From contig CAYYSI010000002.1 in NCBI GenBank assembly GCA_964474435.1, positions 26,193-90,192 on the forward strand: a stretch of DNA of 64,000 nt. Direction: 5' to 3'. Below are positions 3,629-47,990 of the stretch, piece by piece (position 1 is the first letter of the stretch; each line of letters starts with the position of its first letter). The translations under genes were made by a program, and so were the position numbers. The DNA comes from an uncultured Candidatus Saccharibacteria bacterium (GTDB lineage Bacteria > Patescibacteriota > Minisyncoccia > Phycocordibacterales > UBA9973). A model generated the notes under the pieces. It did no database searches, was not told the origin of the DNA, and saw nothing but the letters and a program-made list of their open reading frames with translations.

Positions 3629-4216
3629 TCAAAATGATTCTTTAGTAGAAAACTCCTGGACAATCTCCCATGTTTGATCGGTATTCTTTTTGTACAAAAA
3701 TACCCTCTTAACAATGAGACGATGATCAAATTTTGGATAATGAAGCTTAATATAGGAAACAGCTTTTTGATAAACAGCAGTGTCATCACATTCCTTAATA
3801 AGAGTTGCATGTAATGTTTCAAGAGTAGCATTTACATTTTTTGACAACACTATTTGCTGCCCTCTAAGTATCTCGTGTAGTATTTTAATTATTTTTTCAA
3901 CTACATCAGATGCTTCAAACTTCCATCCAAATGATTTTCCGTTATGATCTAATTCAATAAATTCATCCCAATATATCCTTCCTAATTTTCTTTGTTTCAG
4001 CGATCGAGCAATGAAATCCATTCTTGGCTCAAAAACCGTATCTTCAACCTCAAATGGAGGTATGAGTGTGACATGCAAATCTTTTTTTGGAATTAATACT
4101 GGGAGATCAAAGAAATTTTGCAAATTTGTTTGTATTTCTTTGTAAAGATTTTCTACAAACATTCCCTCGTGTGCAATACCTTCAAGAGATACTGCAAAGT
4201 AGTATTTATTTTTCAT
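3629..4216 (-). CDS. 2H phosphoesterase family protein (LigT-like 2'-5' RNA ligase / cyclic phosphodiesterase)
   Basis: Two H-x-T-x motifs (LHVTLIPPF and LHATLIKE) spaced as in the 2H superfamily. Confidence 0.6.
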   Translation of the reverse strand: MKNKYYFAVSLEGIAHEGMFVENLYKEIQTNLQNFFDLPVLIPKKDLHVTLIPPFEVEDTVFEPRMDFIARSLKQRKLGRIYWDEFIELDHNGKSFGWKFEASDVVEKIIKILHEILRGQQIVLSKNVNATLETLHATLIKECDDTAVYQKAVSYIKLHYPKFDHRLIVKRVFLYKKNTDQTWEIVQEFSTKESF

Positions 4217-42779: not shown

Positions 42780-42804
42780 AGTACGAGTATATCAGGAAAA
42801 AATG

Positions 42805-42877
42805 GGGGCCTATCGGGAATCGAACCCGAATCGAAGGTTCCACAAACCTCAGTGTTAACCGTTACACCATAAGCCCC
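42805..42877 (-). tRNA. tRNA-His (GTG) with genomically encoded G-1
   Basis: Cloverleaf folded manually: G-1 opposite C73, acceptor GGGCUUA/UAGGCCC, anticodon loop UUGUGGA, T-loop TTCGATT. Confidence 0.85.
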
Positions 42878-42925: not shown

Positions 42926-43924
42926 TTAAAGACTAGGTTCTGGTGGTATTACTACCCTCTTTTTGCGTTCAAGGATTGCTTCAAATATCTGGGAACCAAT
43001 AACGGCACAGATGACGAGTCCCACGTAGACACCCAGCCCTCCATAAAATGAGAGGTGGATCTTGCGCAATGACCCTAGGAAAAATGCCGTGTACCAACTC
43101 GTGAGCGACACTGCCCCGAGCGCAAATGCGAGACACCGGAAGTGTCGCGCAGGCACAGTGTCCGTGAATGAAAAGCTTCGCATGCGTGGTGCGACTTTCA
43201 TATTGAGCAGTAGTCCATTGATGATGATAACTCCTACCACAATCACCTTGAGCATAAACTTTGGCGACTCGTTCAGTCGTGCTTGTTCGGGCAAGTACAA
43301 CATGAGGCCTGAGACGACAAGTACTGCAAGTCCAACCCAGATCACGTTGGTGAGTGTGTCCATCGTCCCCTTTTCTTCTTCGGAGATTTTGTCATCCTTG
43401 AGGAATCTAAAGAAAAAGACATCGGTGATCGTCGCACCCCCCAGTCCCAATATAAATCCGATGTTATGAATGATGACCCACCACAACCTTTGCGACGCAA
43501 GAAGTGCAAAGAAATCAGTATGCACATGCCCAAAGAGCGCAACCACAAGGAGAAGTGTTGCAAATGCAGATCCGAGACACCATGCACACCACGCTCTGAT
43601 GACGAGTGCCTGAAGCGCGATGAGATAGATCGAAAATAGCGCACCGCCTATTGTCATGATCGACAGTACCCATAGCAACGTTCCAGTCAAAAGTATTGGA
43701 AACACAAGGACGAGCGCATAGAGCACTCCGACGATGGTGTAGTACGCGATGCCGAGCAATGTATTGTCGATACCAGCCGTCGTTGCAAACGTACTATGCA
43801 CCACCATTTCGCAATTGCTCTCGCGCGGACAAACCAGTCGCGTCTTCTTTTTCTTTTGTCTATATATGTAGAGCGATACGCAAAGTCCGATGAGTGCGCC
43901 AATGATGCCGAGATACAAATGCAT
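42926..43924 (-). CDS. vitamin K epoxide reductase (VKOR) family membrane protein with an additional C-terminal TM domain
   Basis: Loop cysteines C..C near the N-terminus and a CAWC redox motif in a TM helix; 332 aa. Confidence 0.55.
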   Translation of the reverse strand: MHLYLGIIGALIGLCVSLYIYRQKKKKTRLVCPRESNCEMVVHSTFATTAGIDNTLLGIAYYTIVGVLYALVLVFPILLTGTLLWVLSIMTIGGALFSIYLIALQALVIRAWCAWCLGSAFATLLLVVALFGHVHTDFFALLASQRLWWVIIHNIGFILGLGGATITDVFFFRFLKDDKISEEEKGTMDTLTNVIWVGLAVLVVSGLMLYLPEQARLNESPKFMLKVIVVGVIIINGLLLNMKVAPRMRSFSFTDTVPARHFRCLAFALGAVSLTSWYTAFFLGSLRKIHLSFYGGLGVYVGLVICAVIGSQIFEAILERKKRVVIPPEPSL

Positions 43925-43948
43925 TTTTAAATTATACCATCACTCTTC

Positions 43949-44956
43949 TTATTCCTTTATTTCAGTCTTGTACACTGACGCGAGTGCATACATAAATGAG
44001 ATCGCAAGTGGACCGACGAGGATGCCGATCGGGCCAATGAGTGCGATACCGCCGAGCACTGAGAAAAGCACGAGGAGTGGATGAATGTCTATTTTCTTGC
44101 CGACGAGGTATGGGTTCAAAAGGTTATCAATAGAGCCAACCAATACCGCTGCCCAGATACCAAACCCGATTGCAGCTCCGGTGTTGCCACTGACAACAAG
44201 GAAAAGGATTGCAGGGATTGCAACAAGAGCTGTCCCGATCGTTGGCACAAGCGATGCGATACCAGCAAGTACCCCAAAGAGTGCGGCATTTGGTATGCCA
44301 AATATCCAAAGCCCGATACCCATGAGTATCCCTTGTGCAAGCGCGATCAAGAGATAGCCCTTCATGATGCCGTTGACTGCTGCATTGAGCTTCGTCAGGA
44401 TCTTGTGACTGCTGTCATCAGAGAGTGGGCTAAACTTCACAAGCGTTTCCTTCCAATCAGTACCGTCCTTGAGGAAATAGAACATCGCGAGTATGACGAG
44501 GAGGAATGAAAAGAGTGTTGCAAGGGTTGCCGTAAATGCATTCCCAATACCATTACTCAGGCTTGCAGTGAGAGCCGTCACGCTTGATTTGAGGTTGATC
44601 GCGCCGCCTGGAAACAAGTTGGTTATAGAGCGATTGAACACACGTGTGATGTTATCAAGTCCCCCATGATCTGATACCCATCCAGCGAGATTTTGTGATT
44701 GCTTAAAGACGAGCGTGCCGACCGTAAAGAGTGGGATACAGAGAACGATAATAAATATGAGCACGGTCAAAAGGGACGCAACCCATGAAACCTTGAGGTG
44801 TTTCTTGAGCAGTTTGTAGAGTGGAAAGAGTACTGCCGAAAGCGCTATAGAAAGAATGATCACCTTGGCAAAGGGCCAGAGTATTGCGGCAACCAATCCG
44901 GCCCCGACAATAAACAGTGCTGCATAAAAGTATTTGCGCGTGGATTGTTCGTACAT
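43949..44956 (-). CDS. AI-2E family transporter (second copy)
   Basis: 335 aa, same topology and conserved core as the gene at 6945-8018. Confidence 0.7.
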   Translation of the reverse strand: MYEQSTRKYFYAALFIVGAGLVAAILWPFAKVIILSIALSAVLFPLYKLLKKHLKVSWVASLLTVLIFIIVLCIPLFTVGTLVFKQSQNLAGWVSDHGGLDNITRVFNRSITNLFPGGAINLKSSVTALTASLSNGIGNAFTATLATLFSFLLVILAMFYFLKDGTDWKETLVKFSPLSDDSSHKILTKLNAAVNGIMKGYLLIALAQGILMGIGLWIFGIPNAALFGVLAGIASLVPTIGTALVAIPAILFLVVSGNTGAAIGFGIWAAVLVGSIDNLLNPYLVGKKIDIHPLLVLFSVLGGIALIGPIGILVGPLAISFMYALASVYKTEIKE

Positions 44957-45006
44957 AGAGTTAGTTTAGCATGATACGCAAAAATCCCCTTTCGGGAATT
45001 TCCTTG

Positions 45007-45088
45007 TGCGCGCGAGAGGACTTGAACCTCCACGGATTGCTCCATACGAACCTCAATCGTACGCGTATACCAGTTCCGCCACGCGCGC
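45007..45088 (-). tRNA. tRNA-Leu (GAG)
   Basis: Acceptor GCGCGCG/CGCGCGC, anticodon stem UACGA/UCGUA with loop UUGAGGU (G37), long variable arm, T-loop TTCAAGT. Close to E. coli tRNA-Leu in the D-arm. Confidence 0.85.
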
Positions 45089-45089
45089 A

Positions 45090-45767
45090 TCAGTATGTTA
45101 ATTGTTGCTTTCTTTCAACTTCCAAAGCTGTTTCCACCTTTGTACGCTTGCGAGACAAACAAACAACAGTGGGACTATAGTACATTTTTGAAATTATTTC
45201 CAGTGCTTCCCTTTTGGCATACTTGAGCTGCAAAACTGATGTCTTTTGAGTACCAGTTATATGACCTTTGATTCCTATCAATCGCTGTATTGTGCTTTGG
45301 AGCCAATCGACGTGTTTCCTACTTGCAGAAATGAATTCAATATAAAACATGTGGCTCGATTTCCATCGAGGATCCCAATATGAATAAAAAGATCCGTCGC
45401 CATCGAAACATCCACGTAGATAATCAAAGAAGTATTCTTCCGGCACGAGAACGGCCCCAATAGTTTTTGATTTTGCAGGAGTAAGCCCAATACCAAGGAG
45501 AAATTCATAAAATGTTACATCCCCAAACTGCACATGGAAATATTTTTTCTCTGTTGATCTCCCATTTGATTTCACCCCAATCTTTACCGTGAGACCAAGG
45601 CATTTTTTGAAATTTTCAGCTTGTTCCAAATCTTTGGAAGTAAAGCTCATATGGCGCATGTCGTTGTACAAACAACCATCCGTAACGAGTAGCCCTATTG
45701 CATATGCAAAGTTTGCTGACCATTCTATCGGTATGTTCCGTTTTGGTTTTGGTCCCCGCCTCCCCAT
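45090..45767 (-). mobile_element. LAGLIDADG-family homing endonuclease gene (two-motif, single-chain type), free-standing
   Basis: Motifs AIGLLVTDGCL and LRGCFDGDGSF (P1 and P2 LAGLIDADG helices). ATG at 45767; the ORF can extend to a TTG at 45806. The stop codon is 1 nt from the tRNA-Leu 5' end. Confidence 0.75.
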
Positions 45768-45816
45768 ACTATTACTAGTATACCTCAAGGTAATAGCGTC
45801 TACCAATTACTTTTCA

Positions 45817-45846
45817 AAGAAAAAATCCCTGGATGGGATTTTTTGT
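45817..45846. terminator. terminator after rplS
   Basis: AAAAAATCCC-tggat-GGGATTTTTT hairpin with flanking A- and T-runs. Confidence 0.6.
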
Positions 45847-46287
45847 TTATTCCTGATTTGTTGTTTCGATCTCTGGAGTCGTATCTGCAGCTGATTCCAT
45901 CTCTTCCATTTCTTCGGCAACAACCGCGATCTTGCCCCCGAGGATCTGTTTCATCTTGCGGCGGATTTCCTTGGCTGCCTTGTCTCGGATGTAGTAGAGC
46001 TTGCTTCGGCGAGTCTTGGTATGCTTGGTGACTTCGATACGATCGATCATTGGAGAATAGAGTGGGAAAATACGCTCAACGCCCACTGAGTTTGATACCT
46101 TGCGGACGGTAAATGTCGCTGTTGGAGAAGTGCCGTGCTTGCGCGCAAGGACGATGCCTTCGAATGCCTGCAAACGGTACTTGCCCTTATCTTCGATTTT
46201 TGACCAGACGCGCACAGTGTCTCCTGAGGTGAACTCAAGTTTCTGGCGAGCTGCGACGTCGACTGGGGTGAATGTAGTTGATTCCAT
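45847..46287 (-). CDS. rplS: 50S ribosomal protein L19 with an acidic C-terminal extension
   Basis: FTSGDTVRVWSKIEDKGKYRLQAFEGIVLARKH...FTVRKVSNSVGVERIFPLYSP.IDRIEV; start at ATG 46287. Confidence 0.85.
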   Translation of the reverse strand: MESTTFTPVDVAARQKLEFTSGDTVRVWSKIEDKGKYRLQAFEGIVLARKHGTSPTATFTVRKVSNSVGVERIFPLYSPMIDRIEVTKHTKTRRSKLYYIRDKAAKEIRRKMKQILGGKIAVVAEEMEEMESAADTTPEIETTNQE

Positions 46288-46312
46288 ATAGGTCGAAACT
46301 GTATCACAAAAG

Positions 46313-47047
46313 CTATGCTTCTGCAATACTCCCTGTAGCAACCTGGAGAGCCCGTTCAAAATCCTCCGGATAGGGCGCTGTTATCTCGATATTCTCCCCT
46401 GTCGGAGCCATGAAGCTGATAGTCCGAGCATGGAGTGCCACTCGATCAAATCCGAGCGCCTCCTTGCCGCCATAGAGACTGTCCGACACAATCGGCCGCT
46501 GGAGATATTTCATATGGACGCGGAGCTGGTGCGTGCGACCAGTCTGGGGCCACAGATGCATAAATGAAAAACGCTCAGCACCAGATTCAAACTGCTGCAC
46601 TGCTTCCCATTTCGTCACCGCCTCGCGCACTTCGCCTCGCACACCGCGCCCTGCCTGCCACCGACGGAAGTCTCCGACACTTCGACCAATCGGCTCATCA
46701 ACAATCCCTTTTGATTCTTTGAAATGTCCCCACACAAATGCGTGATATTCCTTGTGCACTGTGCGATCTTTGAACTGCTGCTTCAAGTATTCAAATGCTT
46801 CTTGAGTTTTCGCAATGACCAAACACCCACTCGTTTCTTCATCGAGCCGATGCACAATCCCTGGACGCTCGATCACCTTGCCATCGACTTCCATATTCTC
46901 CCCAACCCCCACAATACCCGGCCGCTCCTTCAAAACCCAGTCCACAACTGTCGGCACCTCACTCTTGCCATCGCCATGGGTCCGCAGACCTGATGGTTTG
47001 TTGATGATGAGAAGGTCTGGGGTTTCGAATAGGATTTCTATGGGCAT
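46313..47047 (-). CDS. RluA-family pseudouridine synthase
   Basis: LLIINKPSGL and catalytic HRLD motif; no S4 domain. Confidence 0.8.
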   Translation of the reverse strand: MPIEILFETPDLLIINKPSGLRTHGDGKSEVPTVVDWVLKERPGIVGVGENMEVDGKVIERPGIVHRLDEETSGCLVIAKTQEAFEYLKQQFKDRTVHKEYHAFVWGHFKESKGIVDEPIGRSVGDFRRWQAGRGVRGEVREAVTKWEAVQQFESGAERFSFMHLWPQTGRTHQLRVHMKYLQRPIVSDSLYGGKEALGFDRVALHARTISFMAPTGENIEITAPYPEDFERALQVATGSIAEA

Positions 47048-47048
47048 A

Positions 47049-47990
47049 TTACGCAGCTTGCTTTAGGTCGTTACAGTACCCTATTATCGTCTGATATGCT
47101 TCATCTTTTTCAATAAGGTCACAGTACTTATCTACAACATCTTGGTTGTCTGCAATGATGTTTTGTACCACAATATATGCTCGCCCATATACTTCAGCGA
47201 TCCCACTTTTACCTTTGTGTTCTGCGTACGTTCTATATGCATCGAATTGAGCACTTTTTTCGAGCCATGCTTTCACACGAGTGGGATGCTTAGCAAGCAA
47301 CGCATCATCACCATCAGCCCAAAACTTTAATGCCTGCACTGCGTGATCATAATCAAGTGCAATCACCGCAAGAGGTATTGCTGTACTTTCATCAGTATCA
47401 GCCCGTTCATAATACTTTGCCTCGCTTAACTTGTCGTGATCTATAAGATTTTTGACCCGATTAAGCTTCTTAATAATAACTTCTGGACGACGCGAAAGCG
47501 TAACATCTATTGCCACACCAAACTGTTCTTGGTCGAGCTCAACGATGAAATCAATACCATTTTTAAAATCATCATATTCTGCTGTCTTATAGACCATTGC
47601 TCCTGGCAACCAACCATCCTTACCCCCAAGTTTTTCATAAAAAAGAGCTTCAACGTATCGCGATGTTTCCATAATCTCTTGCTGCCATTCGTAGTTATCT
47701 GCTTCAAGTTCCTTGGACTTATTTTTTATATCAAAATTTCTCTTTATAGAGAGTATCTCTTCTTTATCTTTTTCTACCTCTTCTGCAGAATATAACCCGG
47801 CATGCTTTACACCCTGCTTATCTATAAAGGTGCCGAAGTCTTCTTCTAAAAGGGCGCCATCATGCATCTCCTGCAACTTAGTATTCAAAAATTCCTTTTC
47901 GTGTCGTGAAAATACTTCTGGTTTTTGTGGCAGTGCCGAAGCAAATGTTTCGTGTGACATATCGTTATAACAACTCTGGTATCTCTGACA
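47049..47990 (-). CDS. hypothetical protein
   Basis: About 310-aa ORF with no recognised domain. The start is uncertain (ATG 47990 or 47897); the ORF-caller version overlaps the upstream HAD gene. Confidence 0.4.
   Translation of the reverse strand, partial: CQRYQSCYNDMSHETFASALPQKPEVFSRHEKEFLNTKLQEMHDGALLEEDFGTFIDKQGVKHAGLYSAEEVEKDKEEILSIKRNFDIKNKSKELEADNYEWQQEIMETSRYVEALFYEKLGGKDGWLPGAMVYKTAEYDDFKNGIDFIVELDQEQFGVAIDVTLSRRPEVIIKKLNRVKNLIDHDKLSEAKYYERADTDESTAIPLAVIALDYDHAVQALKFWADGDDALLAKHPTRVKAWLEKSAQFDAYRTYAEHKGKSGIAEVYGRAYIVVQNIIADNQDVVDKYCDLIEKDEAYQTIIGYCNDLKQAA

Follow-up and report, generated by a model that had tools for sequence, protein, structure and literature searches.

The 64,000-nt stretch of contig CAYYSI010000002.1 analysed here (the window), from an uncultured Candidatus Saccharibacteria bacterium, carries between the ribosomal protein gene rplS and an intact tRNA-Leu(GAG) gene an open reading frame (ORF) encoding a LAGLIDADG protein. 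This ORF is probably a free-standing, single-chain LAGLIDADG homing endonuclease gene (HEG) that has the tRNA-Leu(GAG) gene as its homing site and travels with a resistant allele of that tRNA. The simplest reading of the locus would place the endonuclease gene inside a former tRNA-Leu(GAG) gene broken at about tRNA position 39/40, the native 5′ part being displaced upstream and a complete tRNA following the ORF. The initial annotation of the window had suggested a HEG aimed at the rplS–tRNA-Leu junction. Its free-standing and mobile character is supported by a patchy polymorphism at a fixed site, by a mosaic tract and by intact catalytic residues; the target, however, appears to be the tRNA gene rather than the junction.

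A displaced tRNA fragment upstream of the endonuclease gene

Three features of the window are central to this reading (coordinates are those of the window):

45782..45808, minus strand: displaced tRNA-Leu(GAG) fragment of 27 nt, aattggtagacgctattaccttgaggt, directly 5′ of the ORF (tRNA alignment)
45090..45767, minus strand: LAGLIDADG homing endonuclease gene, 225 aa, single chain with two domains, including the TGA stop codon at 45090-45092
45007..45088, minus strand: intact tRNA-Leu(GAG) gene, non-canonical allele (ARAGORN; Rfam score 52.7 bits)

Nearly all copies of the gene are preceded by the sequence AATT(G/A)GTAGACGCTA(Y)TACCTTGAGGTGATATAAT, the first 27 nt of which align to positions 14-39 of tRNA-Leu(GAG). 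This remnant, found upstream of about 70 of 83 homologues with an alignment ending at tRNA position 39/43, spans the D-loop, the 3′ strand of the D-stem, the 5′ strand of the anticodon stem and the anticodon loop with its GAG. Homology to the tRNA ceases at about position 39/40, where the −10 hexamer of the presumed HEG promoter starts. In loci sharing one rplS terminator, the remnant of the occupied site lies in register with the intact tRNA of the empty site, and one locus (L079) has kept tRNA positions 1-37 together with an apparent old tRNA leader and promoter. The possibility that the remnant is a copy of the linked tRNA was considered and rejected, since it fits the generic canonical allele of empty sites better than the tRNA of its own locus. 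No remnant footprints were found in empty sites.

Of the two tRNA sequences, the gene at 45007-45088 is the functional one and is linked to the endonuclease gene. Because the element would carry this complete tRNA at its 3′ end, the stop codon of the ORF abuts the tRNA 5′ end and the host keeps a working tRNA. As the initial annotation had noted, the TGA lies 1 nt from the tRNA, a single spacer nucleotide (45089) separating the two. Its description of tRNA-Leu as intact and uninterrupted holds for this downstream copy, but not for the 5′ fragment displaced upstream of the ORF. That fragment would represent the left half of the homing site. In most lineages, the displaced 5′ half would have been trimmed to the stretch from D-loop to anticodon loop, which may now serve as the upstream half of the HEG promoter.

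The fragment also bears on the start of the gene. The initial annotation had opened the ORF at TTG 45806, which would give 238 aa (45090..45806, minus strand). This start is unsupported because it falls inside the tRNA-like remnant and because the homologues begin at the position of ATG 45767-45765, where all of them open with MGKRGPKPK; the ORF of 225 aa was adopted instead.

A break in the anticodon loop might alternatively be the trace of an intron. On such an account, which the initial annotation had listed, the gene is the relic of a group I (or other) intron in the tRNA-Leu anticodon loop, now immobile and either inherited or lost. Bacterial tRNA introns sit in the anticodon loop or stem, and the homology break falls at positions 36-40 of the anticodon loop and stem, with a fragment resembling a 5′ exon upstream; furthermore, the nearest structures of the protein are archaeal intron-encoded and intein-associated enzymes. 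However, no intron family was detected at E ≤ 10 within 43500-47500, in agreement with the initial view that the gene lies outside any intron, nor did any reach its gathering score when the whole window and 18 related loci were scanned. There is also no room for a ribozyme, because only about 15 nt between remnant and ATG and 1 nt between stop codon and tRNA flank the ORF as non-coding sequence. The downstream tRNA is complete, and no displaced 3′ half, or 3′ exon remnant, was found downstream in 76 loci. Finally, immobility is contradicted by the patchy distribution and the replacement tracts described below. We therefore regard an intron origin as very unlikely; what stands of it is the position in the anticodon loop of the old tRNA gene, and neither the ribozyme nor the space for one. 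No rRNA gene was found anywhere in the window, as had been stated initially for the vicinity of the ORF, and no further LAGLIDADG paralogue was found in the window or in related loci.

The encoded protein

Both LAGLIDADG helices described in the initial annotation are present:

45669..45701, minus strand: LAGLIDADG motif 1, AIGLLVTDGCL, residues 23-33, catalytic D30
45387..45419, minus strand: LAGLIDADG motif 2, LRGCFDGDGSF, residues 117-127, catalytic D124

The protein matches PF14528 (LAGLIDADG_3) above the curated threshold (30.9 bits against a cut-off of 22.5, E=3e-7), and LAGLIDADG_WhiA (PF14527) just below it (22.1 against 23.2). The Pfam scan of the protein gave no match to HTH_WhiA and no Hint or intein domain, and no NCBIfam model matched. 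As a sequence search of the PDB returned only marginal matches to the motif regions of I-CreI and I-MsoI (E 0.02-1), a fold search was needed. An AlphaFold (AF2) model built on 31 homologues predicts, with a predicted local distance difference test score (pLDDT) of 90.3 and a predicted template modelling score (pTM) of 0.88, two alpha-beta-beta-alpha-beta-beta-alpha domains followed by a C-terminal helix. Foldseek placed I-Tsp061I (2dch) first among PDB entries, with template modelling (TM) scores of 0.66/0.72, followed by intein endonuclease domains, I-AniI, the N-terminal domain of WhiA and I-DmoI; the Foldseek probability was 1.0 for I-Tsp061I, I-AniI, I-DmoI and I-SceI. Both catalytic aspartates are retained: 91 full-length copies taken from related loci all have D30 and D124, together with Q80, K99 and K185, and in the 31-sequence alignment the two aspartates are likewise invariant. 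Judged from its sequence and predicted fold, the protein would thus bear every hallmark of an active single-chain LAGLIDADG enzyme.

The archaeal rRNA-intron enzymes I-Tsp061I and I-DmoI and the intein-associated domains are, like the present protein, single-chain, two-domain members of the same Pfam family. Identity to them is only 12-19%, and the present protein differs from them by a basic N-terminal tail (MGRRGPKPK), an added C-terminal helix and its genomic setting. Two other assignments were considered and rejected: that of an intein-associated endonuclease, since the ORF has its own ATG behind a promoter-like site and Pfam finds no Hint or intein domain; and that of a WhiA-type regulator, since the catalytic aspartates are kept, a helix-turn-helix (HTH) domain is missing, and the 225 aa end in a single C-terminal helix.

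Among phage proteins, PHROG 4645 ('endonuclease') matches at E=7e-28, its profile being about 100 residues longer at the N-terminus, and tblastn detects proteins of about 27% identity in 105 phage records, of which 83 are Staphylococcus phages and others include phages of Bacillus and Listeria. PHROG 4645 and these Staphylococcus, Bacillus and Listeria phage endonucleases are distant relatives of the protein.

Occupied and empty sites

Database searches gave 3469 homologues at E ≤ 0.001; the best 120 all have a length of about 225 aa and identities of 60-74%. When genomes were scanned, one for each species, relatives turned up in at least 390 species, without exception Paceibacteria-type Patescibacteria. 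A profile search with clustering at 50% identity gave 249 clusters at E ≤ 1e-30 and, at the looser limit of E ≤ 1e-10, 4018; certain members that it recovered have N-terminal extensions of 50-140 aa. Among the best 80 loci, tRNA-Leu(GAG) lies directly 3′ of the ORF on the same strand in 79 and rplS directly 5′ of it in about 75, with a distance from stop codon to tRNA of −44 to +21 nt.

This synteny suggested a conserved core gene. The impression is misleading because these 80 loci had been selected by similarity to the ORF, and it was abandoned once a later survey, which sampled metagenome contigs through rplS, gave mostly empty sites: among 61 loci, about 49 had rplS followed by tRNA-Leu(GAG) without the ORF, 11 had the ORF and one (L124) had a decayed fragment. 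The distance between rplS and the tRNA is bimodal, at 3-265 nt in 47 of 49 empty sites (outliers at 481 and 1889 nt) and at 734-822 nt in 80 of 83 occupied ones (three outliers at 917-1486 nt). The L124 fragment (positions 1644-1853 of that locus) is a degenerate 210-nt C-terminal piece of the endonuclease gene, 31% identical to residues 157-222, flanked by an rplS terminator and a non-canonical tRNA-Leu(GAG). Hosts whose L19 proteins differ by only 1.8-7% (p-distance 0.018-0.07) may have the site occupied in one and empty in the other, and a neighbour-joining tree of L19 with 132 tips requires at least 30 changes of occupancy state, as compared with about 40 for shuffled labels. The order rplS–tRNA-Leu(GAG) is accordingly background synteny and the ORF a patchily distributed insertion of about 700 nt; the prevalence of empty sites in related genomes favours mobility, not a core gene. 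In three loci (L007, L012 and L053), 570-820 nt of extra sequence lie between rplS and the endonuclease gene.

More distant representatives, at roughly 35-45% identity as judged by eye, were checked in four contigs (L166-L169, encoding P0143, P0167, P0140 and P0161, respectively). In two of the four, tRNA-Leu(GAG) follows directly; the remaining two contigs break off within a tRNA-Leu-like 5′ end. The upstream genes encode type IV secretion pilins in L166 and peptidases in L167; contigs L168 and L169 are too short to reveal the upstream gene. L166 and L169 keep a recognizable tRNA-like remnant upstream. As distant members of the family adjoin tRNA-Leu(GAG) without rplS, the partner of the endonuclease gene is the tRNA gene and not rplS.

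The possibility of domestication has to be weighed against this distribution. The protein could bind DNA or RNA sequence-specifically in the service of the neighbouring tRNA-Leu, for instance as a transcription factor acting on the tRNA promoter region or as a pre-tRNA chaperone or maturase, and be kept by selection on the host instead of by homing. Consistent with this, the ratio of non-synonymous to synonymous substitution (dN/dS) is 0.04-0.11 in the closest pairs, which indicates purifying selection, none of the 91 full-length copies has an internal stop, and conservation of the protein matches that of L19 (mean p-distance 0.39 for the former and 0.38 for the latter). In location the gene is strictly tied to one tRNA, with which it probably shares a transcript; the N-terminal domain of WhiA is among the structural matches of the protein, in line with the sub-threshold Pfam match; and the half-site kept in its own promoter could be an operator. 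On the other hand, about 80% of related rplS–tRNA-Leu loci lack the gene, including those of hosts with near-identical L19; its phylogeny and that of the genes on either side are decoupled, and mosaic tracts show its replacement. In addition, both catalytic aspartates are invariant, unlike in WhiA, there is no HTH domain, and a decayed copy exists. Host-beneficial domestication thus appears unlikely, and the initial proposal of a domesticated endonuclease or maturase was set aside, as only about 18% of related sites are occupied.

Apparent exchange of the gene together with its tRNA

Distances between the ORF proteins correlate with those of the host proteins L19 and RluA at r 0.44-0.51 (Mantel), as compared with 0.68 for the two host genes against each other. 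The most closely related host pairs carry very different ORFs: in the loci L054 and L071 the host proteins differ by 1.8% and the ORF by 27%. At the DNA level their flanks are 93-100% identical on both sides, but identity falls to about 80% from ORF nt 190 and to 50-70% from nt 420 through the end of the tRNA, returning to 97-100% directly past the tRNA 3′ end. Likewise, the occupied locus L029 and the empty locus L111 are about 85% identical in both flanks and only about 60% in their tRNAs. These tracts argue that the tRNA and the 3′ portion of the ORF are exchanged as one unit. The mosaic evidence consists of one clear pair (L054/L071) and one occupied/empty pair (L029/L111), from which we infer the direction and cause of transfer. 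Among close hosts (L19 distance <0.15) the linked tRNA-Leu genes differ by 0.26 and the upstream tRNA-Val and tRNA-Arg genes by about 0.10.

Alleles of tRNA-Leu(GAG)

The tRNAs of empty sites are mostly of one canonical type (...TGGTAGACG(C/T)ACTACCTTGAGGTGGTAGCG...), the same sequence that the remnant matches, whereas those linked to a HEG vary in both the D-arm and the anticodon stem and show compensatory changes. The canonical 28-nt core GGYAGACGYACTACCTTGAGGTGGTAGC occurs in 23 of 49 empty-site tRNAs but in none of the 83 HEG-linked ones (Fisher p=2e-12). When 19 non-overlapping pairs of occupied and empty loci from nearest hosts were compared, the empty-site tRNA was the closer to the canonical sequence in 16 pairs and the further from it in two (sign test p=0.0013). 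The tRNA-Leu of the window has the D-loop GGTATAC and the anticodon stem TACGA/TCGTA. The empty-site tRNA-Leu(GAG) of L116 (positions 3986-4071 of that locus) is canonical but for one G-to-A change in the 3′ strand of the anticodon stem (GGTAA), on account of which ARAGORN miscalls it as odd.

Fragment and allele differences might also be by-products of ordinary recombination or of integrase-type events in which the endonuclease has no part. Indeed, tRNA genes are common integration sites, and the neighbouring tRNA-His is decoupled from host distance as well. Yet the cassette contains no integrase or recombinase gene, the endonuclease being its only ORF; it is always the same unit of about 700 nt at the same tRNA; and the canonical tRNA allele is missing from all 83 occupied sites. 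Such an origin therefore seems highly improbable, and we retain the homing of an endonuclease gene with its tRNA as the preferred reading.

Predicted transcription of the cassette

The signals and genes that surround the cassette in the window are as follows:

45847..46287, minus strand: rplS (ribosomal protein L19), the upstream neighbour (Pfam PF01245, E=3e-34), 5′ of tRNA-Leu(GAG) in occupied and empty loci
45820..45844, minus strand: intrinsic terminator hairpin of rplS (terminator scan; RNA fold −10.5 kcal/mol, z=−2.5)
45777..45806, minus strand: promoter-like site, TTGGTA (inside the tRNA fragment), 18 nt, TATACT (promoter scan)
44980..45001, minus strand: terminator-like hairpin after tRNA-Leu(GAG) (RNA fold −10.8 kcal/mol, z=−2.9; missed by a simple terminator scan)

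On the minus strand the order is thus rplS, terminator, tRNA fragment, promoter-like site, ORF, tRNA-Leu(GAG), hairpin and a gene for an AI-2E-family transporter. In empty sites, a hairpin of the same type as the rplS terminator precedes the tRNA. The ORF had been said to begin about 40 nt past this terminator; the ATG actually lies 52 nt after the hairpin.

Of 73 loci, 54 have a TATAAT-like hexamer whose end is placed exactly 6 nt ahead of the start codon, 44 have an extended TG and only two have a motif resembling a Shine–Dalgarno sequence; in the window, TATACT ends 9 nt before the ATG. The spacing of the −10 hexamer and the near-absence of Shine–Dalgarno motifs suggest that the mRNA may be leaderless, or nearly so, and arise from a promoter straddling the junction between remnant and element. 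Hairpins on both sides bracket the unit of ORF and tRNA, and the one at 44980-45001 is probably the end of the endonuclease–tRNA transcription unit. From the junction promoter, the mRNA would be co-transcribed with the tRNA up to this hairpin, after which RNase P would separate the two; it is plausible that RNase P would in this way set the 3′ end of the mRNA. The per-position information content of promoter and remnant indicates moderate conservation only, and we do not claim an operator.

The stop codon of 15 of the 80 homologues falls within the tRNA gene; the spacing between the two is therefore not a strict requirement. The C-termini encoded in these loci (L001, L004, L006, L008, L012, L020, L026, L028, L037, L040, L047, L056, L066, L068 and L077), such as ...YARVL and ...ADVAKLVHA, are translated acceptor and D-arm sequence, and cleavage by RNase P would strip the corresponding mRNAs of their stop codon.

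Further downstream in the window lie the genes for the AI-2E-family transporter (43949-44956) and for a VKOR-domain membrane protein (42926-43924), which also follow the cassette in the identical-strain contigs L081-L084. Among close strains of the lineage of the window no differing cassette was found, only identical copies. A tRNA-His(GTG) gene lies at 42804-42876, and in loci L001-L165 this tRNA is often found shortly downstream of tRNA-Leu(GAG).

Discussion

We propose that the enzyme would cut the canonical tRNA-Leu(GAG) gene of relatives without the HEG in its pseudo-palindromic anticodon stem-loop (CTACC TTGAGGT GGTAG). Repair from the HEG-bearing copy would transfer the HEG along with the linked tRNA allele, which would be resistant through its compensatory changes in the D-arm and anticodon stem. 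Copies may later be lost or decay, which would account for the patchy distribution.

Several observations weigh against this proposal. We infer both the target and the position within it from where the remnant breaks off and from the statistics of alleles. The hosts closest to that of the window by L19 (L005, L007, L036 and L038) carry the gene without the remnant. The canonical anticodon stem is still present in 18 of 83 HEG-linked tRNAs, in which resistance would therefore rest on differences in the D-arm or at position 26/44. The control with neighbouring tRNAs is mixed, since the downstream tRNA-His follows the host hardly better than tRNA-Leu does and differs by 0.23 among close hosts; its distances correlate with those of L19 at r 0.05-0.13, as compared with r 0.3-0.4 for the upstream tRNA-Val(TAC) and tRNA-Arg(TCT). 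Co-conversion starting at the endonuclease site could explain this decoupling of tRNA-His(GTG), as could an independent effect. Very strong purifying selection, with only one copy decayed, is also what an accessory gene of benefit to the host might show. The host tree is built on one protein of 115 aa (L19), and the occupied loci were gathered mostly by similarity to the HEG and the empty ones by L19, a sampling bias that the paired nearest-host test removes only in part.

The closest parallel in organization is found among fungal mitochondrial mORFs (mobile endonuclease ORFs), such as those in atp6 of Allomyces macrogynus and in atp6, atp9, cox2 and nad3 of Glomus, which carry a replacement gene terminus (PMC3630166). 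In both cases an endonuclease ORF (LAGLIDADG or GIY-YIG in the mORFs) is inserted in an essential gene without an intron and brings with it a divergent copy, of foreign origin, of the part that it interrupts, so that gene function is kept; both have a patchy distribution, and in both the native part is displaced and persists as an unexpressed duplicate similar to the allele that close relatives carry. Here too, the flanking partial duplicate is native-like and the functional tRNA copy divergent. The present element differs in that its host gene encodes a tRNA rather than a protein and lies on a bacterial chromosome (Patescibacteria) rather than in an organelle. Its geometry is mirrored, the native 5′ part being displaced upstream and the functional copy lying downstream, and the displaced fragment appears to have been recruited into the promoter of the endonuclease gene.

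SegB of phage T4 is a free-standing GIY-YIG homing endonuclease in a tRNA gene cluster. Its recognition site includes a conserved tRNA stem-loop motif (T-psi-C), and it drives the preferential inheritance of itself and of neighbouring tRNA genes, with co-conversion of flanking markers (PMC2330249). Both genes are thus free-standing and adjoin tRNA genes. They differ in nuclease family (GIY-YIG against LAGLIDADG), in the tRNA part recognized (the T-psi-C motif against what would here be the anticodon arm) and in setting (phage co-infection against a cellular chromosome), and SegB is not accompanied by a split or duplicated tRNA. Within the candidate phyla radiation (CPR), LAGLIDADG enzymes such as I-ShaI lie in rRNA insertion sequences and group I introns (PMC11270868). 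These share with the present element the bacterial radiation, the superfamily, the targeting of conserved RNA genes and a sporadic distribution. However, the rRNA enzymes are of the LAGLIDADG_1 type and sit inside insertions or introns that are removed from the RNA, whereas the present one is of the PF14528 type and lies outside any intron; host function would be preserved by splicing in the former and by gene duplication in the latter.

It is possible, although we hold it with some reserve, that these observations reflect an arms race between the endonuclease and tRNA-Leu(GAG) across Patescibacteria, in which sensitive alleles would be cut and remodelled resistant alleles installed. The selfish element would then drive a fast, horizontally shuffled evolution of an essential tRNA, from a promoter, and possibly an autoregulatory operator, built from the displaced half of that tRNA.

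Literature searches yielded no description of a bacterial chromosomal LAGLIDADG gene that splits and replaces a tRNA gene. To our knowledge, nearly all homing endonucleases described from bacteria belong to introns, inteins or phage genomes. If our reading is correct, an intron-less LAGLIDADG gene on a chromosome, invading a tRNA gene and rendered harmless by a replacement tRNA, would be new, and would extend to bacteria and to RNA genes the strategy of carrying a spare gene part known from fungal mitochondria. It would account for an ORF that recurs without annotation in at least 390 species of Patescibacteria, and would provide a family of compact meganucleases (225 aa) with a predictable target of about 22 bp and many natural variants of specificity. 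It would also be a natural case of a selfish nuclease shaping the sequence of an essential tRNA, and tRNA-Leu(GAG), possibly together with the neighbouring tRNA-His, would make a poor phylogenetic marker in Patescibacteria.

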